Shown here: piece by piece, positions 3,104-57,992 of the stretch
Numbering within the stretch: position 1 is the first letter of the stretch
How the letters are laid out: each line of letters begins with the position of its first letter
Assembly: GCA_016194445.1 (NCBI GenBank)
Contig: JACQBP010000040.1
Coordinates: 20,402 to 84,401 of the forward strand
Direction: 5' to 3'
Source of the DNA: Candidatus Liptonbacteria bacterium
GTDB lineage: Bacteria; Patescibacteriota; Minisyncoccia; UBA6257; 2-01-FULL-56-20
Length of the DNA stretch: 64,000 nucleotides
The notes under the pieces: generated by a model
Told to the model about the DNA's origin: nothing
Database searches by the model: none
What the model saw: only the letters and a program-made list of their open reading frames with translations
Program-made: the position numbers and the translations under genes

Positions 3104-3117
3104 CGGTTTTTCTTTTA
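3104..3117 (+). terminator. third copy of the GCGGTTTTTCTTTT motif, at the convergent junction of the kinase gene and hddC
   Basis: Exact 14-mer shared with 1789-1802 and 2383-2396; T-rich tail; preceding stem is weak. Confidence 0.3.
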
Positions 3118-3936: not shown

Positions 3937-3939
3937 AAG

Positions 3940-4515: not shown

Positions 4516-4563
4516 ATGACTAATAACTTAGGACGGATGACGAAGGATGAGAAATTAATGAAT

Positions 4564-5172: not shown

Positions 5173-5177
5173 ATTAT

Positions 5178-8111: not shown

Positions 8112-8125
8112 GGATGCTTAGAAAA

Positions 8126-9070: not shown

Positions 9071-9081
9071 AATGGTTCTAA

Positions 9082-10074
9082 TTAAAGAAGAGCGTCTGAC
9101 GCTTGAGAGTACTTTCTCATGACAAATTTTCGGCGAGCATAACGAAGAGCTGGAGAAAAAATAAAGAGGGGTAAAAAGAAAGTGATAACTGAGTTGGCAT
9201 AATAAGTAAGATTGTTTCGGGTAAGGGCTCTTTTTCTTTTAAGCCAATCGATCGCGTTTTTCTTATCTTTGACAATAAGCGCTCCGATGTATCCTTTGGT
9301 CAACCAAACACTTCTCTGATTTTTGATTTGAGACAAGAGATCGGAAAGCTGGATTCCGACATATTTTTTCTTAACTTCAGTTTCTAGCCAGTCGAATATT
9401 TTAATATTGGTCTCGGCGGTTTCGATGAGATAGGAGCCTTGGAAAGAGAGATTTTCCCGATGAAATCTCAAGTGGCCGAGGATTTTATTAAGATACTGAA
9501 ATCTGGCCCCTTTGAGAATAAGCTTGAGCCAAATAATGTGATCGTCGGCGCGGCGGAAACTTTCATCGAAACAGTCGATCACTTTTTCTTTTTTTATGAA
9601 GGTTCCCAGAAAATTAATAAAATTGTGCGCAATAAGATTTTCTAAGTTAACTTCAGGGAAGTAGTGGAGATCAAAGCTAAGAAAATGAGCGGGTCTTTCG
9701 GTTTCGAAATATCGAATGTCTCCGTAATACACATCGTAGCCGCTTTGGATGTTGGCAACTAAAGTCTCACAAGCTTGGGGCAAGAGAATGTTGTCCGCGT
9801 CTAAAAAACTCACCCATTGCCCGTGAGAAGATAGGAGCCCATTTTTCCTGGCGGCGGACTGCCCTCGGTTAACCTGTGAAAGGGATCGGCAATTTTGATG
9901 ACGAGATTCATACCGCTTGATTATTTCGGCGGTTTTATCGGTTGAACCATCATTGATTACAATCACTTCGATATTGGAGTAGGTTTGATTGAACGCCGAA
10001 GAAAGGGTGGCCTCGAGAAATGGCTCGGCATTATAAGCTGGGATGATGATAGATATGAGAGGTTGCTTATTCAT
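9082..10074 (-). CDS. family 2 glycosyltransferase
   Basis: ISIIIPAYNAE...VINDGSTDKT...FLDADN. Confidence 0.6.
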   Translation of the reverse strand: MNKQPLISIIIPAYNAEPFLEATLSSAFNQTYSNIEVIVINDGSTDKTAEIIKRYESRHQNCRSLSQVNRGQSAARKNGLLSSHGQWVSFLDADNILLPQACETLVANIQSGYDVYYGDIRYFETERPAHFLSFDLHYFPEVNLENLIAHNFINFLGTFIKKEKVIDCFDESFRRADDHIIWLKLILKGARFQYLNKILGHLRFHRENLSFQGSYLIETAETNIKIFDWLETEVKKKYVGIQLSDLLSQIKNQRSVWLTKGYIGALIVKDKKNAIDWLKRKRALTRNNLTYYANSVITFFLPLFIFSPALRYARRKFVMRKYSQASDALL

Positions 10075-11117
10075 GGAGAGATCCCAATCTTTTTGAATAA
10101 AGTTTTAAATCTTATTTTGTAGGTATGGTCTTGGAGAGTTCTCTGGTAAGCGGACTGGGCAATGGCTTCTCTTTCTTTGTCGTGCGATAGATAATATCTG
10201 ATTTTTTCGATAAGGTCACGCAGAGAGGTGTAGAATATCATTTCCTCACCTTCCGCATAGGATTGTTTTATATCATCAGAGAGACCAGAGATAACAAAAG
10301 CTCGACAACCGGCAAGTTCGAAGGGGCGGGCATGGGTGTGGGGAATAGCAAAGTGGAGATAAGCCTGGAGGTTGTTCAAGAGATGGAAATCTAGCTTTAA
10401 CTTATCGATGGATTTTTTAAAGAAAAGGCGGGCGATGACTTTAGGGGAAAGGCGGCTAGGACGGACATTGAGGTTGAGGTTAATTTTACTGCGAGAAAAA
10501 ATCTCGAGCATCTTTTCTTGAGAAATTCTGCCGCTCGGCCAACCATAACCAAAAGTTTGGACTTTTAAGCCAGCAGCTTCTAGGGTTTGGATAATTTTAC
10601 CGCGGGGAGTTTTAAATTGACCGATAAAACTTATATCGATATCTTTTTTAAGATCGAGGGGTTGATAAAGGGAGTCGTTACAGGCCCATTGGGAGGGGAT
10701 GACGTTTTCAAAACCTTGCTTACGGTACCAAGCGATGGCTTTTGAATAAGTAGTGATAACCCAGCTGAAATAGGGCGGCCAAGTTTTAGAATAGTTCCAG
10801 AAGCGCCAATAGTCGTCGGCGAACCAAGCGACACTTTTAGTTTTATGTTTGATTTTAAGAAGAAAATTAGGGTCAAGCTCGTTGGTATACATAAAAGCGA
10901 AAAAGAGATCGGGTTTTTCCTTTTCCACTAAAGCCAGAAGTTCTTCATTAAATTTTCGTTTACCGACTTCCAAGATGCGATCAAAGGGATGTTCAATAAC
11001 TTGGAGGCCGGGCATATTTTTTAGAGTAAGGTAAAAATTATTATACTCGAAACTTAGGCCACGATGGGGTTGATAGTTTTCTCTTTGAAGACCGGAGTAG
11101 ATGACCTTAAGAGACAT
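10071..11117 (-). CDS. CgeB-like / DUF3880 glycosyltransferase (paralog 1 of 5)
   Basis: Central WFADDYWRFWNYSK...SWVITTYSKA and C-terminal ELAGCRAFVIS...IRYYLSHDKEREAIAQSAYQRTLQDHTY; closely similar to 37123..38253. Confidence 0.5.
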   Translation of the reverse strand: MSLKVIYSGLQRENYQPHRGLSFEYNNFYLTLKNMPGLQVIEHPFDRILEVGKRKFNEELLALVEKEKPDLFFAFMYTNELDPNFLLKIKHKTKSVAWFADDYWRFWNYSKTWPPYFSWVITTYSKAIAWYRKQGFENVIPSQWACNDSLYQPLDLKKDIDISFIGQFKTPRGKIIQTLEAAGLKVQTFGYGWPSGRISQEKMLEIFSRSKINLNLNVRPSRLSPKVIARLFFKKSIDKLKLDFHLLNNLQAYLHFAIPHTHARPFELAGCRAFVISGLSDDIKQSYAEGEEMIFYTSLRDLIEKIRYYLSHDKEREAIAQSAYQRTLQDHTYKIRFKTLFKKIGISP

Positions 11118-14096: not shown

Positions 14097-14834
14097 TCAA
14101 AGGCGAGGTTTCCTGTAGGATGGGGTAAAATAAATACGCCAGATGAGTTTACTGATAGTGCTCGCGACAAGCAGAAAGTTTTTTAGACTCAAGGCCTTGG
14201 CTTTTCCTCCCTCTCTTTTTTGCAAGCGCGTTTCCACTTCTTCGTAGGAGACGCCGGATTTTATAAGCTCGATTAAAATCTCAGACATAAAGGCGAACCC
14301 AGGTGTCCACCGGGGCAACTGCAGTAAAAGATCACGACGGATAAGACACGCACCATTTAAATAATGTAGCTTAAGACCGAAGAGAATATTGAGTATAACA
14401 ACATAACTACGAGAAATAATCTGTCGCGAGCGGGACCTTATTTCAGCATTTGTCGGATAAGAAATGATAAGATCAGTAACACCAAGTTTCTTAACGACAT
14501 TGATGAGTGTTTGTCCGGACTCTTCGTTATCGCCTGGGACCATCATCACATACTTTCCGCGAGCTTTCTCCACGCCCTGCCGGAAGGCGCCGCCGATATT
14601 ATACGGCTTTTGATTGTGAATAGCGGTGATTTTTGGGAATTCGCTTTTCCGAACCGCGTTATCCATCAGGGCGCCGGTGCGATCGCTGCTTCCATCATTC
14701 ACAAGAATAAGCTCGCACGGCGTTTTAAGCTCGCGAGCTACTTTTTGGATGACGGTTTGGATGGTCGCTTCGATAGCCTGCTCCTCGTTCAAGGCCGGAA
14801 TAATAATGGAAAGTTGGAGTGGAGAATCTGTCAT
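14097..14834 (-). CDS. polyprenyl-phosphate glycosyltransferase (GT2, DPM1/ArnC/GtrB-like)
   Basis: 245 aa short GT2; LSIIIPALNEE...VNDGSSDRT. Confidence 0.6.
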   Translation of the reverse strand: MTDSPLQLSIIIPALNEEQAIEATIQTVIQKVARELKTPCELILVNDGSSDRTGALMDNAVRKSEFPKITAIHNQKPYNIGGAFRQGVEKARGKYVMMVPGDNEESGQTLINVVKKLGVTDLIISYPTNAEIRSRSRQIISRSYVVILNILFGLKLHYLNGACLIRRDLLLQLPRWTPGFAFMSEILIELIKSGVSYEEVETRLQKREGGKAKALSLKNFLLVASTISKLIWRIYFTPSYRKPRL

Positions 14835-15298
14835 TTGGGTTTCGAACTCAACCAGGCAAGAAGATCCCGAAAATCTTCTTTATGATTAAAAGCTAAATCC
14901 ATTTTTAAAATATCCGGAACAGGTAAATAAGAAATTTTTTGTCCTTCGGTATGATAAGTGGTGGCCAGGGATAGATTCGCCAAGGCGTAAAAAACAAAAT
15001 TGTGGTTATACCAAGTAAATTGAGAGTCATGAGAAATCCAGAAGTAGTCTCGGAAAAATCTAATTTTTTGAAGATTAACACCGAGTTCTTCTTTGACCTC
15101 GCGGACGACGGTGACTTCGGGATCTTCAAGCACTTCTAGGGCGCCGGAGATGGGAGTCCATTTACCAGGTTCTCTGGTTGCACTGACCGTCCTTAATTGC
15201 ATTAAAAATTCTCCGTTTGAGTTTTCCAGGTAAATTGACACACCCCGAGCTAGCTTGGGTTCTTTTTTAAAAAAATCCTCGTCTTGGTTAAAAACCAT
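14831..15298 (-). CDS. NUDIX hydrolase
   Basis: Nudix box GALEVLEDPEVTVVREVKEELGV. Confidence 0.55.
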   Translation of the reverse strand: MVFNQDEDFFKKEPKLARGVSIYLENSNGEFLMQLRTVSATREPGKWTPISGALEVLEDPEVTVVREVKEELGVNLQKIRFFRDYFWISHDSQFTWYNHNFVFYALANLSLATTYHTEGQKISYLPVPDILKMDLAFNHKEDFRDLLAWLSSKPK

Positions 15299-15410: not shown

Positions 15411-17294
15411 TCAGACTGAAGGCATACTGCCTAAGAACTGGCCGGGTCTTTCGCCCCGGAGTAGAGGCTTAGCGGGTTTTTTCCTCATAAAACGCTTCCA
15501 AACATCGAGCCGCAAGGTTTCGAGGAAGAATGCCCACGTTTCGCGCCTACTTTGGTGCATCGGGTAGACTCGTTTCTGGTGCATGTAGATCTTGGAGGCC
15601 GTATAGAGCCACTGATAAACTCGGGTGACCCAACGGAAAGGTATTTCGGCGAACACGTAGACGATGAGTCTACTGAGCGGTTTCGACAACCACCGCATGA
15701 AGCGGTTCCGACTCCCCGAGAACAAGATACAGACAGTTCCGAGGAGGGCCAGATTTTCCATAACCGTTTTCTCGCGTTCAGTGAAACACCCGACGAGAGG
15801 AGACCGATTTTGGTAGCTGGCGTGTAGAGCGCCGTAGTCGCCGTCAAAGTACCCTTTGCGAATGAGGTATTGGGTGACCTCGGTTCGAGGGTACGGACAA
15901 AGTGTCCCGAATTCGCCAAAGCTAGTGTGTAGGTCGGTAGTGTAGAGCACCGATTGGCGGTCGTAGTCAAGCTGGCTACGGTGTAAGTCGGTTTGCCGGA
16001 GGCGATTTAAGATGAGTTGCCGGCAGGGCAATCCGTCTGGGTTGCTGAATTGGCTACGGATCTCTCGAATGACCTGCCCTAAGTCAACACTCTTTCTCCT
16101 CACCGGTTTGAAGTGTTGCGACTCTTCAACGATCTCCGCCACCTTCTCGTCGAAATCTCGGTCAAGCAGACTCGGGATTTTTGGAGCAGGAATAGCCAGG
16201 ATAGTGTTGGAAAAAGTGCAAATACCCAGCTCCTCGGCGGCTCGGAAGCCTCCCTGGATTTCCTCGTCTGACATGTCGCGGGCAATAATGTGATCCCGAA
16301 TGAAAGAATTGCCCGACTCGATTGACATGGTTAGAGAGAAGATGCCGGCTTGCTTCAGAAGTGGCAGGGCCCAAGGATTTTTCATAACCAGGTCGCATCG
16401 GACTAGGCAGTGAAAGGGCAGACCGACTTGCCTTGGGTAAATCTCGGCAAATTTCTCTAACCACTCACGATCTGGAGGGAAAATGGGAAAGACGTCGTCG
16501 TAGTGCTTGATGAAGCGAGTGGGCCAATCCCTCTTCAGCTTCGCCAGCTCGTCACAATAACGTTCGGGCGAGTATCGTTGGAGGATGTTGCCCTTCCCCC
16601 CATACATTGCATTGAAGTCGTGTTCAAAGCAGTAGGTACAGCGGAATGGACAACCGCGCCCAGCCATGTGCGTTCGTTTGAAGCGCTGGCCGAAAAGCGT
16701 GGTTTGATAAACCAGTTCGCGGTCGAGGTAGGGCAGATCGTCCAGGTTGCTTTTCCGATCCGCATAGAAATCCGGAGTGACATAGGTTTCGGTGTGCGGT
16801 TTCCCGGAGGGATCGATGACGGAAAGTTGTTTTAACACCCGACCACAGTTTCTCTTCGTGATCATGTTCGGGATTTCGTCGATACGGCCAGACCCTTCTT
16901 CGAAAGCATCGAGGAAAGCCGGCCAGGCGTCATCGCATTCAAGAAATCCAATGGCGTCCAGACAAGGTTCTTCGGCGATCACTCCCGGATAGGAGCTGCA
17001 ATAAGGACCACCTAAAACCGTCATCACGCTTGAGCCCATTTTGCTTTTGATGGCGCGCATGATATCGATGTAGGCTCGGTGAGAACCAGTGATGGCACTC
17101 GCTGCCACGATGTTCGGCTTTAGTTCTTCAACAACCCGCATGATGTCATCGCGCTCAAGGAGAGCGAGATGACAAGTCCTCCAGGGAGCGTTTTGTTTCG
17201 TTAGCGCAGAGAGGAGCATGAGGTTCATAGGTTCGGTCATGTCTCCGTCGTCTCGCATAATCCACAAAACACGCGTTTCGCTTTTAAGCGGCAT
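15411..17294 (-). CDS. B12-binding radical SAM protein (class B rSAM methyltransferase-like) with about 250 aa C-terminal extension
   Basis: N-terminal cobalamin-binding-like domain, then CPFRCTYC (CxxxCxxC) radical SAM cluster motif; 627 aa. Confidence 0.6.
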   Translation of the reverse strand: MPLKSETRVLWIMRDDGDMTEPMNLMLLSALTKQNAPWRTCHLALLERDDIMRVVEELKPNIVAASAITGSHRAYIDIMRAIKSKMGSSVMTVLGGPYCSSYPGVIAEEPCLDAIGFLECDDAWPAFLDAFEEGSGRIDEIPNMITKRNCGRVLKQLSVIDPSGKPHTETYVTPDFYADRKSNLDDLPYLDRELVYQTTLFGQRFKRTHMAGRGCPFRCTYCFEHDFNAMYGGKGNILQRYSPERYCDELAKLKRDWPTRFIKHYDDVFPIFPPDREWLEKFAEIYPRQVGLPFHCLVRCDLVMKNPWALPLLKQAGIFSLTMSIESGNSFIRDHIIARDMSDEEIQGGFRAAEELGICTFSNTILAIPAPKIPSLLDRDFDEKVAEIVEESQHFKPVRRKSVDLGQVIREIRSQFSNPDGLPCRQLILNRLRQTDLHRSQLDYDRQSVLYTTDLHTSFGEFGTLCPYPRTEVTQYLIRKGYFDGDYGALHASYQNRSPLVGCFTEREKTVMENLALLGTVCILFSGSRNRFMRWLSKPLSRLIVYVFAEIPFRWVTRVYQWLYTASKIYMHQKRVYPMHQSRRETWAFFLETLRLDVWKRFMRKKPAKPLLRGERPGQFLGSMPSV

Positions 17295-17369: not shown

Positions 17370-17885
17370 TTAGGGCTGCTCCGAAGATGGAAAAGTCCGA
17401 CAAATTTTTTGGATGATATCGGTAGAATGTGCTAACTCTAAAACAAATTCAACTTTTCCACCGTATGATTCTACTAAGTTTTTATCTAATACGAATCCGG
17501 AAGTGGGATGGGTTTGATACTCCGCACCTTTCACCAAAAAATGAGGCTGCACTGCCTCGATGATCTGGCGGGGACCATAATCATCATTGATAATAACGAA
17601 ATCAACCATCTCGAGTGCGGCGATCCACATTGATCTTAGATTTTGATCGAAAATAGGCCGGTTTGGCCCCTTCCGAACATAGTGGTCACCGACAAGAACA
17701 ACGTAGAGAATATCGCCCTTACTTTTGGCGCGCCAAAAGTAATCAATATGGCCCGGGTGGACAAGATCGAAAACGCCATCACATTGAACCAGCACCTGAC
17801 CTTCTTTTTTAAGTTCCCGAGCTAAGGCGATAAAATCTGCGGGAGTTTTTATTTTTGAGTTAGCTCTTTGATTAACAAAACTCAT
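17370..17885 (-). CDS. cytidylyltransferase-fold enzyme, HldE domain II-like heptose 1-phosphate adenylyltransferase
   Basis: CDGVFDLVHPGHIDYFWRAKSKGDILYV...RPIFDQNLR aligns with RfaE/HldE C-terminal domain (GCFDILHAGH); 171 aa. Confidence 0.55.
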   Translation of the reverse strand: MSFVNQRANSKIKTPADFIALARELKKEGQVLVQCDGVFDLVHPGHIDYFWRAKSKGDILYVVLVGDHYVRKGPNRPIFDQNLRSMWIAALEMVDFVIINDDYGPRQIIEAVQPHFLVKGAEYQTHPTSGFVLDKNLVESYGGKVEFVLELAHSTDIIQKICRTFPSSEQP

Positions 17886-17931: not shown

Positions 17932-18924
17932 TTATACATCTCCGGGAAGTTTCGCCATAAGTTTAAGGATGTCGGCCGTGTCTTCTCCTCTTCCTTCCTG
18001 TGAACTTTTGAAGGCTTCCATGTCAATGTGGTGGACATTCTCGGGAAAAGGAAATTTACGTTCTTTCACCTCTTTTACGTATTGAGAGAATACATCAAGA
18101 ATAACCTGCCCCGCAGTTTTATTCCCGACATCTGATTGGTAGTGTTTGATATATTTTGGCACAGGTCGGGTACCCCAGTCGTAGAAATCAATGGGATCGT
18201 GACCAATTAGAAGTTGCCCATCAGTAAAGCGTCCCGATCCGATACCGTAGACGGGGATTTTGAGCTCGTGATGGATGATTCCAGCAACTTCTTCGGTGAC
18301 GCCCTCGAGAAGAATCGCGAAGGCTCCGGCGTGTTCAAGCGCCTTGGCGGTTTTCAATAATTCCATGGTACTTTCTACGGTTTTCCCTTGGATGCGATGC
18401 CCCCCCATCTCATGAATTTTTTGGGGATTTAAGCCCAAGTGCCCCATGACAAGCACCTCCGCGTTCGCGATCGCCTCAAAGCGAGGAAGAAGCTTCATGC
18501 TCGCCTCACACTTCACCGCAGCACACTTCGCTTCTTTAATAAATCTTACAGCGTTGCGCACCGCATCTTCGTTAGACGCTTGATAGGCGCCCAAGGGCAT
18601 ATCCCCGACCGTAAATACTGGCCCAGCGCCGCGCACGGCGGCGGAGGCAAAAACAATCATCTCGTCCATGGTGACGGGAAGGGTGTTCCCATATCCCAAA
18701 ACTGTCATGCCAAGAGAGTCGCCGACGATAATAACATCGACGCCCGCTTTCGCCGCGGTCCTGGCAAAGGGATAATCATAGATACTCAAGGCCGCCACTG
18801 GAATCCCTTTTTCTTTCATATTCTGAAGGGTCGTGACTTTGACGTCGGAGCGTGGCTTTTTTGGAGACACCTCGAGTTGGGCCGCTGGTTGTGGTGAGTG
18901 CGCGGGATCAATAAGATCTGGCAT
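17932..18924 (-). CDS. PanB-like (ketopantoate hydroxymethyltransferase fold) enzyme with N- and C-terminal extensions
   Basis: LSIYDYPFARTAAKAGVDVIIVGDSLGMTVLGYGNTLPVTMDEM matches the PanB core (MTAYD...VGDSLGMV.LGY.ST.PVT.DDM); 330 aa against about 264 for PanB. Confidence 0.5.
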   Translation of the reverse strand: MPDLIDPAHSPQPAAQLEVSPKKPRSDVKVTTLQNMKEKGIPVAALSIYDYPFARTAAKAGVDVIIVGDSLGMTVLGYGNTLPVTMDEMIVFASAAVRGAGPVFTVGDMPLGAYQASNEDAVRNAVRFIKEAKCAAVKCEASMKLLPRFEAIANAEVLVMGHLGLNPQKIHEMGGHRIQGKTVESTMELLKTAKALEHAGAFAILLEGVTEEVAGIIHHELKIPVYGIGSGRFTDGQLLIGHDPIDFYDWGTRPVPKYIKHYQSDVGNKTAGQVILDVFSQYVKEVKERKFPFPENVHHIDMEAFKSSQEGRGEDTADILKLMAKLPGDV

Positions 18925-18982
18925 AATTTTAAACGATAGGCTATTAGCAGGAAAAGGTCAATCTTGGAATTTGATCTCCAAA

Positions 18983-20155
18983 CTAATGCTCCTGTGTAAA
19001 GTCACGGATCTGCTCAACTGCTTTTTGAAGTTCCTGCAATGGAGCGGCAAAACTGAGACGTACATACCCGGGCGCAAGAAAGGCTTCTCCGGGAACCACG
19101 GCTATTTTTTTCTCATCAAGGAGACGGGCGCACCACTTGGCAGACGTGCGGATCTTTCCTTTAAGAAGACGGCGAACATCAATGAAGAAATAAAAGGCTC
19201 CCTCTGGCGGCGCGAAGGAGATCCCATTGATTTTTGAGAGCGCGTTGATTAGAAATTGTCTCCGAGTTTGAAACTCCCGAAACATAAGATTTAACGACTT
19301 TTGAGAACCGGAAAGAGCGGCAAGCGCGGCCTTTTGCGCGATAGAGGAAGTGTTTGAAGTAGTTTGGCTCTGAAGCGAGGTGATGGCCTGAATGATCCAC
19401 TTGGGGCCGGCAGCGTATCCAATTCGCCACCCAGTCATCGCGTAAGCTTTAGAAAATCCATTGACGGTGAGAGTGAGCTCCTCGATACCCGCACCGAGCG
19501 ACGCGATAGAGTGGTGTTGGCCTTTGTAAAAAATCTTCTCGTAAATCTCATCGGATATAACGAAGAAGCCTTTTTTCTTCGCAAGATGCGCGATTTTGAT
19601 CAATTCAGATTTTTTAATCACCGCTCCGGTGGGATTAGAGGGACTATTCAGAAGGAGAGCTTTAGTGTGGCGAGAAACCTTATTTTGAACATCTTGAGCG
19701 GTAAGTTTAAACGGAGGGAGAAGCGGAATAAAAACGGGGGTGGCGCCGGAAAGCTTAATTTGTTCAACGTAGGTAGTCCAGGTGGGAGTGGGAACTAAGA
19801 CCTCATCCCCGCGACCACAGAGCGCTTGAAATGCATGGTAGAGAACTTGTTTTGTCCCCACGCCGACAACGATTTCGCTGGGCTGGTAATGGATATGGTT
19901 GTCACTCAATAATTTTCGAGTAATGGCTTTCCGAAGCTCAAGAATACCCGGCGTTTCGGTGTAGTGCGTAAAACCTCTTGCCATCGCCAACGCCGCCGCC
20001 CTTCGGATATAAAGAGGGGTTGGAAAATCAGGTTCTCCTAGCCCGAGGTTAATAACCGGGATACCGGATGTCTGTAGGGCTTTGACTTTTTCATCAAGCG
20101 CGAGAGTGGGCGAAGAAGAGAGGTGTTGCACTCGGGAAGATAAAGCATCTCTCAT
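18983..20155 (-). CDS. class I/II PLP aminotransferase (AspAT-like)
   Basis: NPTGAV and SKAYAMTGWRIGY (PLP lysine region); 390 aa. Confidence 0.65.
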   Translation of the reverse strand: MRDALSSRVQHLSSSPTLALDEKVKALQTSGIPVINLGLGEPDFPTPLYIRRAAALAMARGFTHYTETPGILELRKAITRKLLSDNHIHYQPSEIVVGVGTKQVLYHAFQALCGRGDEVLVPTPTWTTYVEQIKLSGATPVFIPLLPPFKLTAQDVQNKVSRHTKALLLNSPSNPTGAVIKKSELIKIAHLAKKKGFFVISDEIYEKIFYKGQHHSIASLGAGIEELTLTVNGFSKAYAMTGWRIGYAAGPKWIIQAITSLQSQTTSNTSSIAQKAALAALSGSQKSLNLMFREFQTRRQFLINALSKINGISFAPPEGAFYFFIDVRRLLKGKIRTSAKWCARLLDEKKIAVVPGEAFLAPGYVRLSFAAPLQELQKAVEQIRDFTQEH

Positions 20156-20180: not shown

Positions 20181-22016
20181 TTACTCCAGCTTCTGCCATC
20201 CCTCTTTTTCTTTTTTCCTCGGAAGTGGATCCACGATCATATTCCCAAGAAATTCTTCATCAGGTAGATAGGGTTGCATGTCTTCAAGCGGCCTTCCAAA
20301 ATTAAGTCTGGGAACAAGCGTTTGGTTGGTATCGATGAGTACATTACAGATGACAGGCCGGTCGCTTTTCAAAGCTTTCTCGATAGCGCCCGCCATTTCG
20401 TCGGGTTTCTCGACAGCAAAGGCATCAATCCCATAGGCCTCGGCAACCTTTACAAAGTCTGGCATGGAGTAACCACCCTCGGGAGTGCTGGCGTAATAGC
20501 GACCATCAAAATAATTATCTTGGAACAGCTTGATAATACCCATACTGCGATTGTTAAGAATAAAAAGCTTAATCGGCAATTTATAGTGCGCGATAGTTTG
20601 AAGTTCTTGAATATTGAGCTGGACGCCACCATCGCCATCTAGACAAACAATCTTCTTCCCCGGAGCGGCGAAGGCAGCGCCAATAGCGCCGGGGACCGCG
20701 TATCCCATCGGAGAATTGGCAAAGGCCGTGAGTAACTTTTGACCAGATTTGATTTGCCATGATTGCATCGTCCAGACCAAATTGCCACCCTCGTCAACAA
20801 CAATAATCTCTCCTGGTTTAACGTGATCAGAGAGAGTTCGAACGAATGAGTAAGCATTAATGAAGGGCTGATTAAAATATTCAGGAAGTACTGAAGGATA
20901 TTTAAGCCACCATTCGTTCGTTTTCTTAACCCACAAATCCGCGTCAGGAATTTTCGCCGTCGCGAGTTCTTCCAGCACTCCGGCAAGAAACTCTTGGGCA
21001 TCCCCACAAACCTCGATGGCTGGTTTAAAATCTCGATACTTCTTAAACTCGGCCGGGTCAATATCAACCATAACGACCTTGGCGTTACGGGCAAACCAAT
21101 CGACTTTGCCACCAGTTTGCCGAGAGTCTAACCGAGAACCAACCGAGAGGATAAAATCACTGTTCTGGATAACAAAATTAGCCGCTCGGTTTGAATAAAC
21201 TCCCAGTGAACCTCGAAAGAGTGGGTGGTCGTGGGGAATAATATCAAAACCACCCCAGGACACCACCACCGGGATACCTAACTTCTCAAGAAGAATCCGG
21301 GCCGACTCTTCGGCTTTCGCGTGTTTGACTCCTCCACCAAGCAGAAAAACCGGTCGCTTAGAATTAGATAACAAGGCAACAGTTTCGCTCGCTTTTTTTC
21401 TTAAAATATTTTTAGGATCTGTGGAGGAATCGCTTGTTGCGGGTGGAGTAAATCCTTCGAGTAAATCAACATCGATATCAGTAACTTGAAGGTTCATAGG
21501 GAGATCAATTAGAACTGGCCCCGGTCTCCCGGTGGTGGCAATCCAATAGGCTTTTTCTAATTCGTAGCGGATGCGTGAGGGATCAGAAATCCAAATCGCA
21601 TATTTCGTGATGGGTTTTACGATATTCACAATATCGGTTTCTTGAAAGCCGAGTTGACGAGGACGCAGGGGTCCCTCGACGCTCTCAATGGATTCCCGAA
21701 CATTAACCTGACCAGTGATGAAAAGAGCGGGGATAGAATCAAAATAACAATCACAAATCCCTGTGATTAAATTAGTTGCCCCGGGGCCGCTGGTAGCGAT
21801 GGCAACGCCGATGCCGGGTCCGATGCGTGAATAGTTCTCGGCAGCCATGGCAGCGGCTTGCTCGTGTTGCATGCAGACATAGTTCAAATCCCCTTTTTCC
21901 GCAAACCGTCTTCCAATGGCATCTACTAGATGCGCCACGGAACCACCGGTTACTGAAAAGATATGTTGGGTGCCGCGCTTGGCTATAAAATCCACAAGAT
22001 AATCAGTCAGTTTCAT
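20181..22016 (-). CDS. thiamine-pyrophosphate enzyme of the acetolactate synthase large-subunit family
   Basis: N-terminal TPP-Pyr domain (GGSVAHLVDAI...GPGATNLITGI) and C-terminal TPP-PP GDGG motif (LDGDGGVQLN); 611 aa. Confidence 0.7.
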   Translation of the reverse strand: MKLTDYLVDFIAKRGTQHIFSVTGGSVAHLVDAIGRRFAEKGDLNYVCMQHEQAAAMAAENYSRIGPGIGVAIATSGPGATNLITGICDCYFDSIPALFITGQVNVRESIESVEGPLRPRQLGFQETDIVNIVKPITKYAIWISDPSRIRYELEKAYWIATTGRPGPVLIDLPMNLQVTDIDVDLLEGFTPPATSDSSTDPKNILRKKASETVALLSNSKRPVFLLGGGVKHAKAEESARILLEKLGIPVVVSWGGFDIIPHDHPLFRGSLGVYSNRAANFVIQNSDFILSVGSRLDSRQTGGKVDWFARNAKVVMVDIDPAEFKKYRDFKPAIEVCGDAQEFLAGVLEELATAKIPDADLWVKKTNEWWLKYPSVLPEYFNQPFINAYSFVRTLSDHVKPGEIIVVDEGGNLVWTMQSWQIKSGQKLLTAFANSPMGYAVPGAIGAAFAAPGKKIVCLDGDGGVQLNIQELQTIAHYKLPIKLFILNNRSMGIIKLFQDNYFDGRYYASTPEGGYSMPDFVKVAEAYGIDAFAVEKPDEMAGAIEKALKSDRPVICNVLIDTNQTLVPRLNFGRPLEDMQPYLPDEEFLGNMIVDPLPRKKEKEGWQKLE

Positions 22017-22100: not shown

Positions 22101-23231
22101 TTAGTTTTGAATGCAGAATTGATGAATAGCCTCGCAAACATAATGAATGTCTTTGGGTTTTAAATATTGGTGGATGGGGAGGGTGACCATGGTTTCGGCT
22201 TGCTTTTCGCAGACCGGAAAATCTCCTTTCTTATATCCCAAATACTTAGCGGCTTCTTGAAGATGAATAGGGATGGGATAATGGACCAAAGCCTCAATCC
22301 CTTGGTTTTTCAAAAATTTAATAAGTTCTTTTTGCTGCTCAGTCTGGATGACGTAAAGGGTGTAGATTGGTTTCACTGGCACTTTGCACAAATCTCGCTT
22401 GGGGATGTGGACTTTCGGCTCTAAATCGGAAAGGAGTTGGTCGTAAAGTGCTGCATTCTGAGCTCTTTTTTCGGTATTTCCTTCAACTTCACTTAAAACG
22501 ATGCTCGCGATGGCGGCTTGAATCGTATCAAGTCGGCTGTTGTGAGCAAAAAAGATAACTTCGTCGCGATTTTTCAACCCGTGGTTCCTCCAAAGCCGAA
22601 GCTTCTCGGCGAGTGCATCGTTGTTGGTAGTAATCATACCGCCGTCACCCCAAATGTTGACGATTTTTTGTGGGTGAAAACTGAACCCAGCGGCATCACC
22701 AAAAGAACCGACATACTTATTGTCGTACATAACTGACGAAGACTGGGCGGCATCTTCGATGACAAAAAGATTGTGACGCTTGGCAATGTCTAAAATAGGA
22801 TACATGTCCGCAGGATTGCCAAAAAGGTGGACTGGGACGATGGCTCGAGTTTTTGAAGTGATGGCTTTTTCTACCGCCTCCGGGTCGATAGTGTAATCGT
22901 CGCGCACATCAGCGAAGACTGGTCTAGCGCCGGCGGTAGCGATAGCCCCAGCGGTGGCGATGAAACTGTTTGGAGCAGTAATAACTTCATCGCCTTCTTT
23001 AATGCCTAAAGCACGAAAGGAAAGGAAGAGGGCATCAGTACCGTTGCCGACGCCGATGGCATGCTTGATCCCGAATTTTTTTGCGTATTCTAACTCAAAA
23101 TCTCTTGCTTCTTGACCAAGAGTAAAATCGCCCCTTTTGGCAATTTCTTGAATTTTGAGAAGGAAGCGTTCGGGGTTTTTGAACTGTTCGGTTAGATATA
23201 CATAGCGAACTTTCCAGTTAGGCTGTTCCAT
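22101..23231 (-). CDS. DegT/DnrJ/EryC1/StrS-family sugar aminotransferase
   Basis: GDEVITAPNSFIATAG and the FHPQK.. lysine region; 376 aa. Confidence 0.7.
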   Translation of the reverse strand: MEQPNWKVRYVYLTEQFKNPERFLLKIQEIAKRGDFTLGQEARDFELEYAKKFGIKHAIGVGNGTDALFLSFRALGIKEGDEVITAPNSFIATAGAIATAGARPVFADVRDDYTIDPEAVEKAITSKTRAIVPVHLFGNPADMYPILDIAKRHNLFVIEDAAQSSSVMYDNKYVGSFGDAAGFSFHPQKIVNIWGDGGMITTNNDALAEKLRLWRNHGLKNRDEVIFFAHNSRLDTIQAAIASIVLSEVEGNTEKRAQNAALYDQLLSDLEPKVHIPKRDLCKVPVKPIYTLYVIQTEQQKELIKFLKNQGIEALVHYPIPIHLQEAAKYLGYKKGDFPVCEKQAETMVTLPIHQYLKPKDIHYVCEAIHQFCIQN

Positions 23232-23274: not shown

Positions 23275-24288
23275 TTATTTTAATTTGATTTCCTGCATGG
23301 TCTTCACGTTAAAATATTTGGTGTTGTTGAGTGAGTCTTCAAATTTTCCTGCTTTAAACGCTTCGATAAGGTCAGAAACAGCTCCACGGATGTCTCTTTT
23401 GGGTTTAAATCCTAGTTCTTTAAATATTTTCTCGGATGATATGTGGTAGGATCTTTTGTCGTCGCCGGCTTCTTGATGGTTAACCTTAACACTATTGCCA
23501 CTTGAGGATTCGACCTCCGATTTGACGATGTTGGCAATTTCAGAAACGGTATAGTTTCTGGCGCCAGCGTTGAAAACTTTAGAGTGAATTTTTTCACTAG
23601 GATGCGATAGGAGGTCAGAATAAAGATCGGTAATGTCTTCAATGTGGATGTTGGGCCTTTTTTGCTCGCCACCAAAAACAGTGATAATACCTTTACTCCA
23701 AGCGTGATTAGTTAAAATGTTTACTGTTAGATCAAAACGCATGCGAGGAGAATAGCCGCAAACCGTTGCCGACCGGATCGCCACTGCAGTAAAATAAGGG
23801 GCTCCTTCTTTCATTAAGATTTCTTCGCCTAACACTTTGAATTTGGAATAATCAGTGAGTGGTTCAAGGGGCAAATCTTCGGTGATGTTTTCTTCCTGTT
23901 TTAAACCATAGACACTCGAGGTGGAGGCAAAGATGAAACGTTTCACTTCAGCTTGGCGCGCGTGGGATACGACCTTGATCATGGCGTCGTAGTTAATTGA
24001 TTTGCCAAGTTCGGGATTTAACTCAAAACTCGGATCGTTAGAAATACAGGCAAGATGAATAACGGCATCAACGCCCAGAAGGGCTTCGCTCAGAGTATTG
24101 TCATTACGGATATCGCCATGAATTTCTTCGAGGTTGGAATTTCGGTAACCGGCAAAAACGTTAGGTTCATATAAATACAAATCAAGCACTTTGACGCGAT
24201 AGCCTTTCTTTAATAGTTTGGGAACTAAAACAGAGCCGACGTATCCAGCCCCGCCAGTGACTAAAACCGTCTGGATATTACTCATCAT
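23275..24288 (-). CDS. NAD-dependent epimerase/dehydratase (extended SDR)
   Basis: VLVTGGAGYVGS Rossmann motif; 337 aa. Confidence 0.65.
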   Translation of the reverse strand: MMSNIQTVLVTGGAGYVGSVLVPKLLKKGYRVKVLDLYLYEPNVFAGYRNSNLEEIHGDIRNDNTLSEALLGVDAVIHLACISNDPSFELNPELGKSINYDAMIKVVSHARQAEVKRFIFASTSSVYGLKQEENITEDLPLEPLTDYSKFKVLGEEILMKEGAPYFTAVAIRSATVCGYSPRMRFDLTVNILTNHAWSKGIITVFGGEQKRPNIHIEDITDLYSDLLSHPSEKIHSKVFNAGARNYTVSEIANIVKSEVESSSGNSVKVNHQEAGDDKRSYHISSEKIFKELGFKPKRDIRGAVSDLIEAFKAGKFEDSLNNTKYFNVKTMQEIKLK

Positions 24289-24300
24289 TGGACATAGGGC

Positions 24301-25836
24301 CTAGTTTTTGAGCAGAGTGTTGATAGATTTTAACAAGGTGTTGGATTCAACGGAATGTTTGTTGCCCACGATAGTGACAGCTAGAGCTCCGACGGCATTA
24401 CCGATAAAACCGGCGGCTTCTACGGGCAGGCCAGCCCGGACTAAGGGCGAGGTGATGGCTAGAAAAGCATCACCGGCGCCAACCCGATCGAGAACACGAG
24501 TCGAGAGTACAGGAACTTTGTAAAGTTTTTTACCATCATACGATAAACAGCCCTCGTGGCCGAGGGTAACGATGATTCTTTTGGCCTTAAGTTTGTTGGT
24601 AACGGCGGCTAAAATTTCTTTCCATTCGTCCAGAGAAGCGACTTCTTTTTTCTTGGTGATCAGTCGGGCTTCTAAGTGATCAATACAGACAAAATCGGCG
24701 CGCGGATATTTGGTGGCCATATTGAAGCCAAAGTTAGCGCTGTTGGTTTGAGTATTCAAGGCCAGAAAGGGAGCATTGTGACTGAGGTAATCAATGAGGC
24801 GAGGAGTGAGGAGTCCGTGGCCGTAGTCTGCCACGATGACTAAATCATACATGGGTAAAACTTTTTTTAAATGGCTTAGAATTTTTTTCTCAAGAGCTTC
24901 GGGAATGAGCGAGTCTACGAAGTAGTAGACTTCAAACATTTTAGTTAGAAGTGGAGAGTCAATGAATCGCCGTTTGACGATGGTAGGGGCGGTGGGGTGA
25001 TAGAAAAATTGGGGCCGAACATTGGATTTTAGATGGGCTCGAATGAACTTTTCCTTGCTGTCTTTGGCGCCAAGACAAGTAAGGAGGTCAACTTGTTTGC
25101 AGTAACTAGTGAGGTGGTTCGCGCAAGCGATGGAGCCGCCGGCAAAAGCCTCTTCGTGTTCGTACCGAGCGGCAATAATGATATCTTTGGGCGTTTTATT
25201 CATGGCTCGCACATAGTGATACTCGTCAATAATCGCCTCGCCGATGATTAAAACTTTGTAATTTTTGATTTTTTCGAAGTAGCCCAAGATGTCTTCGAGG
25301 CTGAACCTTTTTTGAAATCCTTGGAGGAATTCTTGGGTGGCTTCGGGATAGGGAGTCAAAAAATTATTAATTAGTTTAGTGGAGCTGAAGGTGATGTCAT
25401 CGGTAAACTCGATTTTGCCTCCGACCTTTTTGACAGCTTCAGTTTCCTTATTAATACCGCCGCTGCTAATGGCCCTTTTCTTGCCGTATTCATTACCTTT
25501 GATATAAAAACTGGGTCGCACCGCATAAATGGCCGGAACGGCGGTGGGAGCATCATTCACGGCCACAAAATCAACGGCCGTCAAAGAAGCGACAGCTTCG
25601 GCTCTTAATTGCTCATTAAAGATGGGCCGGTCAGGACCTTTGTTGACATAACGATCCGAAGTAACGGTGACCACTAAGATATCCCCTCTTTTTTTAGCGG
25701 CGGCGAAATGGCGGATGTGGCCAGGATGGAGTAAATCAAAGACACCGTGGCATTGGACGATGCGTTTATGCTTGGCTTTCAAATCACGAAGTACGGGCGC
25801 AAGATTATTAAGTTTGTAAACTTTATTGACTGCCAT
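24301..25836 (-). CDS. bifunctional cytidylyltransferase + PfkB sugar kinase (HldE-like, reversed domain order)
   Basis: N-terminal CHGVFDLLHPGHIRHF adenylyl/cytidylyltransferase domain; C-terminal PfkB domain ending in DRVGAGDAFLA; 511 aa. Confidence 0.6.
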   Translation of the reverse strand: MAVNKVYKLNNLAPVLRDLKAKHKRIVQCHGVFDLLHPGHIRHFAAAKKRGDILVVTVTSDRYVNKGPDRPIFNEQLRAEAVASLTAVDFVAVNDAPTAVPAIYAVRPSFYIKGNEYGKKRAISSGGINKETEAVKKVGGKIEFTDDITFSSTKLINNFLTPYPEATQEFLQGFQKRFSLEDILGYFEKIKNYKVLIIGEAIIDEYHYVRAMNKTPKDIIIAARYEHEEAFAGGSIACANHLTSYCKQVDLLTCLGAKDSKEKFIRAHLKSNVRPQFFYHPTAPTIVKRRFIDSPLLTKMFEVYYFVDSLIPEALEKKILSHLKKVLPMYDLVIVADYGHGLLTPRLIDYLSHNAPFLALNTQTNSANFGFNMATKYPRADFVCIDHLEARLITKKKEVASLDEWKEILAAVTNKLKAKRIIVTLGHEGCLSYDGKKLYKVPVLSTRVLDRVGAGDAFLAITSPLVRAGLPVEAAGFIGNAVGALAVTIVGNKHSVESNTLLKSINTLLKN

Positions 25837-26014: not shown

Positions 26015-26560
26015 TTAGGCGCTGGGAATGAGGGCGCGGTATTTCTTGATCAACTCTCGCGCCAAGAGAGTGATGTGTAACTGGCCGTAAACTCGCTCGA
26101 CGGTGGTGACGAGTTTTTTCATAAACTCAATCCACTCGCCAAGGATCTGAGGATAGAAATCGCCGCCATCATAGAGCGTCGCGGTTTTATCGTAGAGCTT
26201 TAGGAGTTGAATCAGTGGCGGCTTACTTAGAACTGCAACTTTCTCTTCCTCAAATCCTCCCTGATAGGTCATCTCATCAACAAGACGCCTGACTTCTTCG
26301 GGTAGATCGTTGGGAAGATCGGCGGAGGTGTCCTCGAAGACATCATGGAAAAGAAGCGCATACGCTCCAGGAATTCGAATGTTCTCTGGTAATTGGGTAT
26401 CCAGAAGGAGCATCACCGCACACCAGAGAGAGTGGGTCCAGTAGGGATTTTTTTCTCCGTTCTGGAAGGTACGGACCGCCTTCGCATTAGGTCGTGTGTG
26501 ATTGTTATGCGCCTCCGCGGCGGCAATAAGGTGTTGGAGGAATACCTGCGTATTGAGCAT
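26015..26560 (-). CDS. HD-domain phosphohydrolase (YfbR-like 5'-nucleotidase family)
   Basis: H...ALLFHDVFED HD motif; 181 aa; in a GC-richer segment. Confidence 0.5.
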   Translation of the reverse strand: MLNTQVFLQHLIAAAEAHNNHTRPNAKAVRTFQNGEKNPYWTHSLWCAVMLLLDTQLPENIRIPGAYALLFHDVFEDTSADLPNDLPEEVRRLVDEMTYQGGFEEEKVAVLSKPPLIQLLKLYDKTATLYDGGDFYPQILGEWIEFMKKLVTTVERVYGQLHITLLARELIKKYRALIPSA

Positions 26561-26596: not shown

Positions 26597-27283
26597 TTAT
26601 AGCTGGCTGGCGGTTTGATACCAGATCGAATCCGGAGATTGGATCAGGCCCCAGCACCTGAAGCGCCAGAGGGCGGCTTGGGTGAGACTACAGATGGTTT
26701 TGATCTTACGCACCTCTTCGGGAGGGAAGAATCGCACATGATCGATCTCTTCGTTTGGTTCGGGATGTGATCCAGAAGATCCCAGACCTACCAAAGTCGC
26801 GAAGAGTTCGTGGGCGGCTCCACTAAGCGCTGGGAGGGCGTGGACAAAACCGATGGAGGCCGCCTCTACGACTTTGAGTCTCATTTCCTCCAGCACTTTC
26901 TCTAAAGGAGTGAGAGCGAGGCCATGAACAGCCTCGTATTCCTCGATGCCGGAGCCATACTTTAGAACGCCCAGGATCTGGCTGGGATCTCTGGCGAACG
27001 CAACCGCCGAAATCTCTGGCGGAATGACACTGAACCGCCGATGGAAAACAAACCCCAGATGTCCATCGGACTGACGAATCACGATATGAAGTTCACCCCG
27101 CCGTGATTCAATGGCGATGCCTTCATAGGCCACCTCTCCGGTTGATACATTAACCGCATCGATGATTTGGATGGCCGCGCCGTGAATTGCGTTTTCGAGT
27201 CGGCGTTTCCTCGGATCCCACCGCCATTGTTTTCCAAACCGGCTCTCGGGTCCGGGTGGACGGACGATTAGTCTTGTGCTCAC
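26597..27283 (-). CDS. hypothetical protein (228 aa), possibly a degenerate NUDIX-fold
   Basis: Intact ORF in the GC-rich segment; no clear motif. Confidence 0.35.
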   Translation of the reverse strand: MSTRLIVRPPGPESRFGKQWRWDPRKRRLENAIHGAAIQIIDAVNVSTGEVAYEGIAIESRRGELHIVIRQSDGHLGFVFHRRFSVIPPEISAVAFARDPSQILGVLKYGSGIEEYEAVHGLALTPLEKVLEEMRLKVVEAASIGFVHALPALSGAAHELFATLVGLGSSGSHPEPNEEIDHVRFFPPEEVRKIKTICSLTQAALWRFRCWGLIQSPDSIWYQTASQL

Positions 27284-27521
27284 TCATAACTCCTTTCTAT
27301 GAAAATAGCTACCGTTAAATTCGTTTCCGTGGGTTAGCTCAAGATGCCAAAAAGCTGACTATATTATACTGATGATGAAAGAGAAGTCAAAAACCACGGG
27401 CTTTAGCCTGTGGTTTGAGAGTTGTTCTCTCCTGCGAGAGAAACTGGCTTGACCCTCAGCCTAAAGACCGGGGCTTGCGCTTGGAGTGTCAACGCGGGGA
27501 TGCGGAGCCGTGATATTGCAA

Positions 27522-27923
27522 TCACGGCTCCACTCGACGACCAGCAAGGAAATCCTCAAATCGCTTCCTTTCTTGTCTTTTTCTCTGTCTCTCGTCGAGA
27601 TGGCACCATATCCAATCTATCCACCAAATTGGCACAGCGCCAACGAGTGTAACGGAAAGATGCCAGTGACCCCAAAAAGGGATGGTGGGGTTCACGCGAG
27701 CTTGTTCCAGATCGGCGAGAAAAAAGGTGACGACAAAAAAAGACAGGAGACCGATTCCAAGGATGTGGGACTTTTCAAGCCAACCACCGACGATAACGCC
27801 AATGGCGCCCATGAAAATTCCTTGCAGGACAGTGAATCCAAGGTGCTTAGTAGCGATCACTGAAGTAACGAGAAACAAGGCAGTGAAGCCTATGGTTTCT
27901 CGCTTGGACCTTGTGGGTGACAA
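27522..27923 (-). CDS. hypothetical small membrane protein
   Basis: 133 aa with several hydrophobic helices; preferred over the overlapping + strand ORFs, which are less protein-like. Confidence 0.3.
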   Translation of the reverse strand: MSPTRSKRETIGFTALFLVTSVIATKHLGFTVLQGIFMGAIGVIVGGWLEKSHILGIGLLSFFVVTFFLADLEQARVNPTIPFWGHWHLSVTLVGAVPIWWIDWIWCHLDERQRKRQERKRFEDFLAGRRVEP

Positions 27924-28024
27924 GTGTGCCTCCTAGTTTCAACCCAAATCCACGTGGATTTGGGGCTGGCCACAATATAGGACTTTAAAAAAATAAAGTC
28001 AAGCCGACTAACTTTCTTTTTTAG

Positions 28025-57966: not shown

Positions 57967-57992
57967 TAGACGGCGGTGATTTAATAAAAGAG

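Follow-up and report, generated by a model that had tools for sequence, protein, structure and literature searches.

YerE-like enzymes are thiamine diphosphate (ThDP)-dependent carboligases that transfer acyl groups from 2-oxo acids onto the keto group of nucleoside diphosphate (NDP)-bound deoxy-keto-sugars. In the erwiniose, caryophyllose, and gastriose clusters, a YerE-like enzyme (ErwE, MMAR_2332, or MyGE) is encoded beside a class-II pyruvate aldolase, and this aldolase makes a gamma-hydroxy-2-oxo acid that is used instead of pyruvate as the donor onto an NDP-4-keto-sugar (PMC9306805). ErwE takes 4-hydroxy-2-oxobutanoate and rejects pyruvate, and in the tested case branching comes after the aldolase step; the reverse order, with aldol extension following branching, is a formal alternative, and amino-acid transamination is an alternative source of the donor keto acid (PMC9306805). 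PanB of Escherichia coli (ketopantoate hydroxymethyltransferase, KPHMT) can act without folate as a class-II aldolase that takes several 2-oxo acids as nucleophiles and formaldehyde, other aldehydes, or aldoses as electrophiles (PMC7610986; PMC10127515). Here we analyzed a 64,000-nucleotide stretch of a Candidatus Liptonbacteria contig (JACQBP010000040.1; hereafter, the window), in which a putative PanB-like 2-oxo-acid hydroxymethyltransferase/aldolase of 330 amino acids (17932-18924, minus strand; PF02548) is encoded in a glycan region and belongs to a glycan-associated clade of the candidate phyla radiation (CPR). By our informal estimate, it is very probable that this enzyme does not serve pantothenate synthesis and is functionally tied to a YerE-like enzyme encoded nearby. 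By analogy with the clusters described above, the PanB-like enzyme may supply a 4-hydroxy-2-oxo acid that the YerE-like enzyme grafts onto an NDP-keto-sugar, a full model that we favor tentatively.

The YerE-like ThDP-dependent carboligase (sugar C-branching enzyme) of the window (20181-22016, minus strand) consists of 611 amino acids and contains three TPP domains. It scores under the cut-off of every acetohydroxyacid synthase (AHAS) model, and its closest matches in the Protein Data Bank (PDB) are 8rph (1.3e-111) and 5ahk (5e-102), the latter of which we take to be the structure of PpYerE, versus 6e-82 for true AHAS. The entry 8rph is JanthE (PMC12188165), and JanthE and PpYerE are the YerE-like enzymes for which structures exist (PMC12247030). 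A branched-chain amino-acid reading, in which an AHAS feeds PanB via 2-oxoisovalerate, was rejected on the basis of these sub-threshold AHAS scores and the lack of ilvC-, ilvD-, or ilvN-type genes; acetolactate, moreover, is no PanB-type nucleophile. In Pfam scans of the large open reading frames (ORFs) of the window, no ApbA/PanE, IlvC, or IlvD domain was found.

To compare gene neighborhoods, we used 15 independent loci of the PanB-like clade (the window, L002, L003, L013, L014, L016, L019, L020, L022, L023, L024, L027, L104, L105, and L106) and, as controls, 43 loci of at least 6 kb with canonical PanBs that came from a metagenome scan; neighbors were counted within 10 kb. A homologue of the ThDP enzyme of the window was present in 13 of the 15 clade loci and in none of the 43 control loci (Fisher p = 3e-11). 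L020 adds a split YerE-like gene, whose halves (ORFs of 314 and 287 amino acids) have 5ahk (9e-62) and 8rph (1e-47) as best matches, so that a YerE-like gene occurs in 14 of the 15 clade loci. In L023, L024, and L027, the PanB-like and YerE-like genes are immediate neighbors, separated by 112-139 nucleotides, and a YerE-like assignment also holds for the ThDP enzyme of L023. Conversely, panC was found near none of the clade genes and in 19 of the 43 control loci (Fisher p = 1e-3), and panD was likewise missing from all 15 clade loci by tblastn. The initial annotation had placed the gene in a glycan operon without pan genes, which agrees with our searches of the 64-kb window: tblastn with the E. 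coli proteins as queries gave no match for PanC or PanD, and no ApbA/PanE domain is present. Gene order and companion genes differ widely among the clade loci, which variously contain ADP- or GDP-type heptose genes, split transketolases with E1-like ThDP enzymes, sugar C-methyltransferases, and NeuB-type nonulosonic-acid genes; the linkage between the PanB-like and YerE-like genes is therefore not merely inherited synteny. The conserved partner of the PanB-like gene is a YerE-like carboligase, not an aminotransferase.

Two kinds of clade loci deserve mention on their own. In L020, the split YerE-like gene (8103-9910, minus strand) diverges from the PanB-like gene (10001-10927, plus strand), and the pair adjoins nonulosonic-acid genes (NeuB, Epimerase_2, CTP_transf_3, formyltransferase, and HisH/HisF-like), a context which suggests that such a pair can also serve a sialic-acid-type pathway. 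L014 (51-5512) and L104 (1-4418) contain three kinds of ThDP enzyme side by side with the PanB-like gene, namely E1-like alpha/beta subunits, a YerE/AHAS-like enzyme, and a split transketolase, together with an aldo-keto reductase, an RmlC-like isomerase, and GDP-heptose genes. These ThDP sets imply heavily C-branched or chain-extended sugars.

The arrangement resembles the ErwI/ErwE, MMAR_2331/MMAR_2332, and MygI/MyGE pairs, in which a YerE-like gene also stands beside the gene for a potential maker of a gamma-hydroxy-2-oxo acid, and the cluster here likewise contains candidate genes for NDP-keto-sugar supply, reductases, and glycosyltransferases (PMC9306805). In the window, the candidates for these functions, assigned by family only, are the HldE-like and HldC-like enzymes, several short-chain dehydrogenases/reductases (SDRs), a GT2 glycosyltransferase, and the GDP-heptose genes. 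Neither the window nor the related loci examined showed an aldolase of the HpcH or BphI type, and the PanB-like gene would therefore take the place of the aldolase in the branched-sugar scheme. The two systems differ in the family of the proposed donor maker, which is PanB (isocitrate lyase (ICL)/phosphoenolpyruvate (PEP)-mutase superfamily) here and a BphI-type or HpcH/citrate-lyase-type pyruvate aldolase there. Here, a C1 unit (methylene-tetrahydrofolate or formaldehyde) would serve as the electrophile, where the known pairs use acetaldehyde or larger aldehydes; the sugar context is of the heptose type (GmhA, HddA, and HldE-like) and not CDP-3,6-dideoxyhexose, and the hosts are uncultured CPR bacteria. 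In the literature that we covered, from which a 2024 survey of more than 200 YerE-like clusters was absent, we found no PanB/KPHMT in a polysaccharide, O-antigen, branched-sugar, or YerE context.

The initial annotation had instead paired the PanB-like enzyme with the adjacent aminotransferase and proposed hydroxymethylation of a 2-oxo acid followed by transamination. This protein (18983-20155, minus strand; 390 amino acids; PF00155, 7e-79) is a class-I pyridoxal phosphate (PLP) aminotransferase, tentatively of the aspartate aminotransferase (AspAT) Ib/prephenate aminotransferase-like type, and carries the PLP-lysine motif NGFSKAY. It falls below all NCBIfam equivalog cut-offs, the best being archaeal-type AspAT (402 bits versus a cut-off of 550), and its best PDB match is 5wmh, a plant aspartate/prephenate aminotransferase (2e-96). 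GntC, a gamma-hydroxy-arginine cyclodehydratase, is among the better sub-threshold NCBIfam matches of the aminotransferases of the window, L016, and L106. Although the gene is indeed adjacent to the PanB-like gene, across a 58-nucleotide gap, it does not follow it except on a plus-strand reading; in transcription order, it lies upstream. A class-I aminotransferase homologue was detected in 5 of the 15 clade loci and 2 of the 43 control loci (Fisher p = 1e-2), and these homologues fall into two lineages, one in the window, L002, and L003 and the other in L016 and L106 (L016 6489-7634 and L106 8735-9943 are 49% identical, while L106 and the window share 37%).

Transamination after the PanB-like step would give a gamma-hydroxy-alpha-amino acid (homoserine, 3-methylhomoserine, or "pantonine" type), with which the glycan would then be decorated. 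In favor of this route, the window, L002, L003, and L106 each have the two genes side by side in the same orientation, class-I aminotransferases work on 2-oxo acids, and the recruitment of two lineages beside PanB-like genes suggests a real functional link. However, ten of the clade loci have no such aminotransferase whereas all but one have a YerE-like gene, a linkage that the route leaves unexplained; the upstream position of the aminotransferase gene also speaks against it, and in the cassette we found no enzyme (ATP-grasp, amide ligase, or acyltransferase) capable of joining an amino acid to a sugar. We therefore regard this route as quite unlikely. With the aminotransferase in only five loci and drawn from two lineages, hydroxymethylation followed by transamination cannot be the general role of the clade, and the YerE-like gene, which the initial annotation did not mention, takes the place that it had given to the aminotransferase; a side branch of that kind is possible in the window. 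The co-occurrence analysis across the 15 loci thus upheld the lack of panC and panD within 10 kb but not a general link to the aminotransferase. Since the aminotransferase gene is upstream and present in only a third of the loci, its product is most simply a feeder that makes a 2-oxo acid from a scavenged amino acid, and probably an optional one.

We next consider the PanB-like protein itself. It matches PF02548 over residues 28-292 with E = 1.9e-85 (286.8 bits versus a cut-off of 28.7), and the core motif VGDSLGMTVLGY...LPVTMDEM noted in the initial annotation is present in the ORF at 17932-18924. An AlphaFold2 model built from a 63-sequence alignment of the clade is a confident TIM barrel, (beta/alpha)8, with a mean predicted local distance difference test (pLDDT) value of 87.8 and a predicted template modeling (TM) score of 0.87. 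In Foldseek searches, this model matched the PanB structures 3vav, 1m3u, and 1o68 with E values of 1e-25 to 1e-26, TM (target) values of 0.94-0.95, and a root-mean-square deviation of about 1.8 A. The next-best family was methylisocitrate lyase (E about 1e-10), a member of the ICL/PEP-mutase superfamily, for which the range was 1e-8 to 1e-10. The family match, the barrel model, and the structural superposition thus bear out the earlier assignment of a PanB fold, and the comparison clearly places the protein with PanB (1e-26) over the rest of that superfamily.

The protein aligns with E. coli PanB (264 amino acids; PDB 1m3u, E = 2.8e-45) from residues 29-296 to residues 5-261, and its identity to PanBs is about 35-41%. 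Its excess length over the E. coli enzyme, estimated earlier at about 65 amino acids, is 66. As for the terminal extensions to which the excess had been attributed, extra residues do occur at the N terminus (about 24) and the C terminus (about 31), but a net 11 residues are internal (residues 245-265). The N-terminal tail is weakly conserved even between relatives with 82% identity and is disordered in the model (pLDDT about 60), and the internal insertion at about 245-265 is modeled as a loop (pLDDT 65-80). The C-terminal extension forms two short helices (302-307 and 313-324; pLDDT 82-89) and is common to the whole clade.

Seven catalytic or ligand residues of E. coli PanB (D45, S46, D84, K112, E114, H136, and E181) correspond to D69, S70, D108, K138, E140, H162, and E207 in the PanB-like protein; they show no variation across the 63 aligned clade sequences and are at least 95% conserved both inside and outside the clade. 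We take S46 and K112 to be carboxylate contacts in E. coli PanB (1M3U). Six conserved acidic or basic residues have been described near the PanB ligand pocket, including K112 (within 5 A), with the residue printed there as D46 equivalent to D45 here (PMC13488298). Because these residues are all kept and clade-invariant, the metal-dependent machinery for 2-oxo-acid enolization appears intact. The ORF encodes a genuine member of the PanB family with a (beta/alpha)8 barrel, in which the Mg2+-dependent apparatus for C3 enolization of a 2-oxo acid appears to be retained, and a 2-oxo acid, as assumed in the initial annotation, remains the most likely substrate.

These features could also be read as those of an ordinary housekeeping PanB for pantothenate and CoA that lies in a glycan region by chance. 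The protein scores above curated panB equivalog cut-offs in NCBIfam (TIGR00222 panB, 231.2 bits versus a cut-off of 207.55; PRK00311, 278.4 versus 272), the NCBI records label it as panB, its catalytic residues are all present, and about half of the control PanB loci likewise have no adjacent panC. We nevertheless consider this reading very improbable. According to the usual description of CPR/Parcubacteria genomes, most pathways for making cofactors and amino acids are missing from them; the window contains no domains of the ilvC, ilvD, or panE type, and the clade loci consistently have a YerE-like gene nearby and never panC or panD. The phylogenetic position of the protein and substitutions at otherwise invariant positions, as described below, also speak against it.

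We collected 202 non-identical homologues by a protein search, a scan of species-representative genomes, and a metagenome scan, with E. coli PanB included. The genome scan, performed with query-specific patterns, gave only three close relatives, and the metagenome scan, performed with the clade alignment, gave mostly canonical PanBs (41-47% identity) and only four clade loci. In a neighbor-joining tree of these sequences, all homologues with a glycan context fell in one clade of 112 members (stem length 0.16), while E. coli PanB and every panC-linked PanB were outside it. A second protein search with P0040 as the query retrieved the same clade first and then canonical-type PanBs. The clade members are known from metagenomes only and carry the names Liptonbacteria, Yanofskybacteria, "Parcubacteria", and, in one case, Saccharibacteria; records of Candidatus Liptonbacteria metagenome-assembled genomes (MAGs; CPR/Parcubacteria) include an identical copy of the PanB-like protein, as does a 73.8-kb contig from run SRR12113410.

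The clade is further distinguished by residue switches, at which the replacement residues are fixed at 86-100% within the clade. Outside the clade, the canonical residue is 97-100% conserved at T23, L42, G115, G116, T140, P184, and A204, 90% at S143, and 83% at I113. T23S and A24I convert TAYD to SIYD, L42I converts LVGDS to IVGDS, the three switches I113C, G115A, and G116S convert KIEGG (KxEGG) to KCEAS, and T140N and S143K convert HLGLTPQS to HLGLNPQK; P184T, A204S, F229Y, and F263H are further switches of the clade. The canonical IPVIGIGAG and DGQILVMHD read IPVYGIGSG and DGQLLIGHD in the window protein, which thus departs from the canonical pocket motifs. I212, V214, and M215 of the E. coli enzyme are Leu, Ile, and Gly in the window protein, and mutation of I212 and V214 widens the substrate scope of E. 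coli KPHMT (PMC7610986). The secondary structure of the model puts the switched positions at the C-terminal ends of strands beta-1, 2, 4, 5, 6, and 7 or within a few residues beyond them, that is, on the catalytic face, and several are in or beside the four pocket motifs derived from 1M3U (PMC13488298). The motif pattern was bimodal in further homologues; sequences of about 50% identity, for example from a Gammaproteobacteria MAG, carry the canonical signature. A signature of four motifs, SIYD, IVGDS, KxE[AT][SN], and HxGxNPQK, distinguishes the clade from true PanB. Because neither the pocket motifs nor the pathway context is that of PanB, filing the protein as "PanB, pantothenate biosynthesis" is not justified, and the pipeline label "3-methyl-2-oxobutanoate hydroxymethyltransferase" would wrongly credit CPR bacteria with a step of pantothenate synthesis.

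Some homologues showed features of their own. P0128 (523 amino acids) and P0133 (515 amino acids) are PanBs of canonical signature (TAYD, LVGDS, KCEGG, and HLGMTPQN) fused to an S-adenosylmethionine (SAM)-dependent methyltransferase (PF08241 and PF13649); to our knowledge, such a fusion has not been described. L002 (CAYTEE010000013.1), which is labeled "uncultured Candidatus Saccharibacteria", encodes PanB-like, aminotransferase, YerE-like, DegT, SDR, and HldE-like proteins that are 69-83% identical to those of the window and syntenic with them, and its Saccharibacteria label or its binning may be wrong.

The substituted pocket also bears on another possibility, namely that the substrate of the PanB-like enzyme is a ketone linked to a sugar, either an NDP-4-keto-sugar (as the C3 or C5 enolate) or an acetyl branch that the YerE-like enzyme has installed from pyruvate, so that a C-hydroxymethyl or 3-hydroxypropanoyl branch would be formed directly on the nucleotide sugar. 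The constant company of SDR dehydratases/epimerases, RmlC-like isomerases, and C-methyltransferases is consistent with this possibility, an alpha-hydroxy-ketone could chelate the metal in the same way as a 2-oxo acid, and the G115A, G116S, T140N, S143K, and P184T switches, the inserted loop, and the C-terminal extension would fit a larger, nucleotide-bearing substrate. In a broader form, the clade would represent folate-dependent or aldolase-type C-hydroxymethyltransferases for a nucleotide-activated keto-sugar or a ThDP-installed acyl branch. We consider this class doubtful; if it existed, it would stand as a PanB-scaffold class of sugar C-branching enzymes alongside SAM methyltransferases and ThDP carboligases, and we know of no precedent for a PanB-scaffold C-hydroxymethyltransferase that acts on a nucleotide sugar. 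On the other hand, Ser46 and Lys112, which we take to be carboxylate contacts, are invariant in the clade, and no nucleotide-binding element is evident. Branching first and aldol extension second is the formal alternative mentioned above, but in the tested precedent the aldolase precedes branching (PMC9306805). Action on a sugar-linked ketone is thus, in our opinion, unlikely, if somewhat less so than the amino-acid route.

In the favored model, in which the PanB-like enzyme makes the donor for the YerE-like enzyme, the nucleophile would be a small 2-oxo acid (pyruvate, 2-oxobutyrate, or 2-oxoisovalerate), which the class-I aminotransferase, where present, may supply by deaminating a scavenged amino acid. 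This acid would be enolized on the metal and gain a hydroxymethyl group to give a 4-hydroxy-2-oxo acid, with either 5,10-methylene-tetrahydrofolate as the hydroxymethyl donor or an aldehyde in a cofactor-free class-II-aldolase mode as in E. coli PanB. The YerE-like enzyme would decarboxylate the product, and the resulting hydroxyacyl carbanion would attack the keto carbon of an NDP-4-keto-deoxy-heptose or -hexose, an acceptor that neighboring kinase, nucleotidyltransferase, and SDR genes are predicted to provide. The acyl-branched sugar could be tailored by SDR reduction, DegT amination, and radical-SAM methylation, and a glycosyltransferase would install it. We infer this flux from the PanB-like to the YerE-like enzyme, and with it the candidate nucleophile, C1 donor, and sugar acceptor as well as the feeder role of the aminotransferase, from gene content and the precedent of the branched-sugar clusters.

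Several points weigh against this model. Co-localization is silent on the order of steps, and the score of the protein above the panB equivalog cut-offs may mean that it carries out the reaction of PanB itself, from 2-oxoisovalerate to ketopantoate. The proposed reshaping of the pocket rests on the positions of motifs and strand ends and not on ligand distances. Furthermore, the clade loci are evolutionarily related, so that the Fisher p-values overstate their independence, and L019 has no YerE-like gene within the 10 kb around its PanB-like gene. Synteny with L014 and L104, in which the same gene block is preceded by a YerE-like gene, suggests that in L019 such a gene lies just beyond the span of the locus.

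Compared with PanB (EC 2.1.2.11; PF02548; 1M3U, 1OY0, and 3VAV), the PanB-like protein thus shares the fold, the Mg2+ ligands, and the acid/base and carboxylate-binding residues, whereas it differs in its separate clade, substituted pocket motifs, internal insertion, and two-helix C-terminal extension, as well as in the nucleotide-sugar clusters, free of panC and panD, that house the clade genes examined. The scaffold is also that of E. coli PanB in biocatalysis, which hydroxymethylates several 2-oxo acids and takes aldehyde electrophiles; there, however, the activity is laboratory promiscuity with a scope widened by I202A, I212A, and V214G, whereas here we see an apparent dedicated paralogue (PMC7610986; PMC10127515). 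For biocatalysis, a PanB-type aldolase/hydroxymethyltransferase whose pocket was altered by natural evolution would be of interest, as such catalysts now come from engineered E. coli KPHMT. If the favored model is correct, PanB would become a third, unrelated enzyme family in the "keto-acid donor plus YerE-like carboligase" logic of acyl-branched sugars, and a branched heptose or hexose with hydroxymethyl-extended side chains would be predicted on the surface of uncultured episymbionts, a group with scarcely any characterized glycans.

A phosphonate head-group pathway (PEP mutase, Ppd, aminotransferase, and cytidylyltransferase) was also examined and rejected. The likeness is superficial: the glycan locus here also combines a barrel of the ICL/PEP-mutase superfamily with a ThDP enzyme, an aminotransferase, and a nucleotidyltransferase. 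However, the barrel is clearly that of PanB and not of PEP mutase (1e-26 versus 1e-8 to 1e-10), the ThDP enzyme is full-length and YerE-like and not of the Ppd type, and the aminotransferase belongs to class I and is not a 2-aminoethylphosphonate transaminase.

The PanB-like gene lies in a single large glycan region of about 50 kb, which spans 3.1-54 kb of the window and is encoded almost entirely on the minus strand. In transcription order, the cassette consists of genes for an HldE-like enzyme, an SDR, a DegT-type aminotransferase, the ThDP enzyme, the class-I aminotransferase, the PanB-like protein, an HldC-like enzyme, a B12-binding radical SAM enzyme, a NUDIX hydrolase, and a GT2 glycosyltransferase, with intergenic gaps of -4 to 112 nucleotides from the first to the last. 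All of these genes are on the minus strand. The HldE-like bifunctional enzyme (24301-25836; about 510 amino acids) contains PF01467 and PF00294 and falls below the cut-offs for rfaE domains I and II. Its domain order is inverted relative to that of E. coli HldE, with the nucleotidyltransferase at the N terminus and the PfkB kinase at the C terminus, and the same order recurs in L022 (1-693) and L023 (610-2148). The SDR epimerase/dehydratase/reductase (23275-24288; PF01370, 6.8e-38) is a candidate for a keto-sugar-forming step or a YerF-like reducing step, and the next gene encodes a DegT/PseC-type nucleotide-sugar aminotransferase (22101-23231; PF01041, 5.5e-106).

Downstream of the PanB-like gene, the HldC/RfaE-domain-II-like nucleotidyltransferase (17370-17885; 171 amino acids; PF01467, 6.5e-13) reaches 112 bits with TIGR02199, below the cut-off. 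The B12-binding radical SAM enzyme (15411-17294; 627 amino acids; PF04055 and PF02310) is a probable C-methyltransferase; tblastn detected a homologue in 3 of the 15 clade loci, and enzymes of this kind are annotated in L016, L022, L023, and L106. The NUDIX hydrolase (14831-15298; PF00293, 3.3e-14) is followed by a small GT2 glycosyltransferase of 245 amino acids (14097-14834; PF00535, 2.9e-20), whose relatives in L003, L022, L023, and L027 are 31-33% identical. Several genes of the cassette have a higher GC content than the window mean (0.442) and their neighbors (0.37-0.45), with values of 0.527 for the B12-binding radical SAM gene, 0.507 for the PanB-like gene, 0.489 for the aminotransferase gene, and 0.50-0.55 for two ORFs of no assigned family, a possible sign of lateral acquisition.

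Upstream of the HldE-like gene, two ORFs without a Pfam match lie inside the operon on the minus strand (26015-26560 and 26597-27283; 181 and 228 amino acids). Farther upstream, they are followed by a 741-nucleotide gap (27284-28024) without a long ORF, and beyond this gap an SDR enzyme of the 4,6-dehydratase/epimerase type is encoded upstream of the cassette (28025-29029, minus strand; PF01370, 4e-63; PF16363, 4e-60). A promoter and terminator scan of 13.5-29.5 kb gave site counts that were not above the shuffled expectation; the best sigma-70-like site of the scanned region, with 11 of 12 matches, is in the gap at 27390-27363. At the other end of the glycan region, a set of GDP-heptose supply genes identified by Pfam (3115-6200, minus strand) encodes an HddC-like NTP transferase, a GmhB-like HAD phosphatase, a GmhA-like SIS isomerase, and an HddA-like GHMP kinase, and the same set also flanks the PanB-like genes of L014, L019, L104, and L106. 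The region also includes genes for many SDR dehydratases/epimerases, GT2 and GT1-like transferases, FkbM methyltransferases, a flippase, a Wzy_C protein, and a YfhO-like protein. Outside the glycan region, a Phage_holin_4_2 protein (57876-58346) and a Fic/DOC-domain protein (62530-62985) are encoded on the plus strand.

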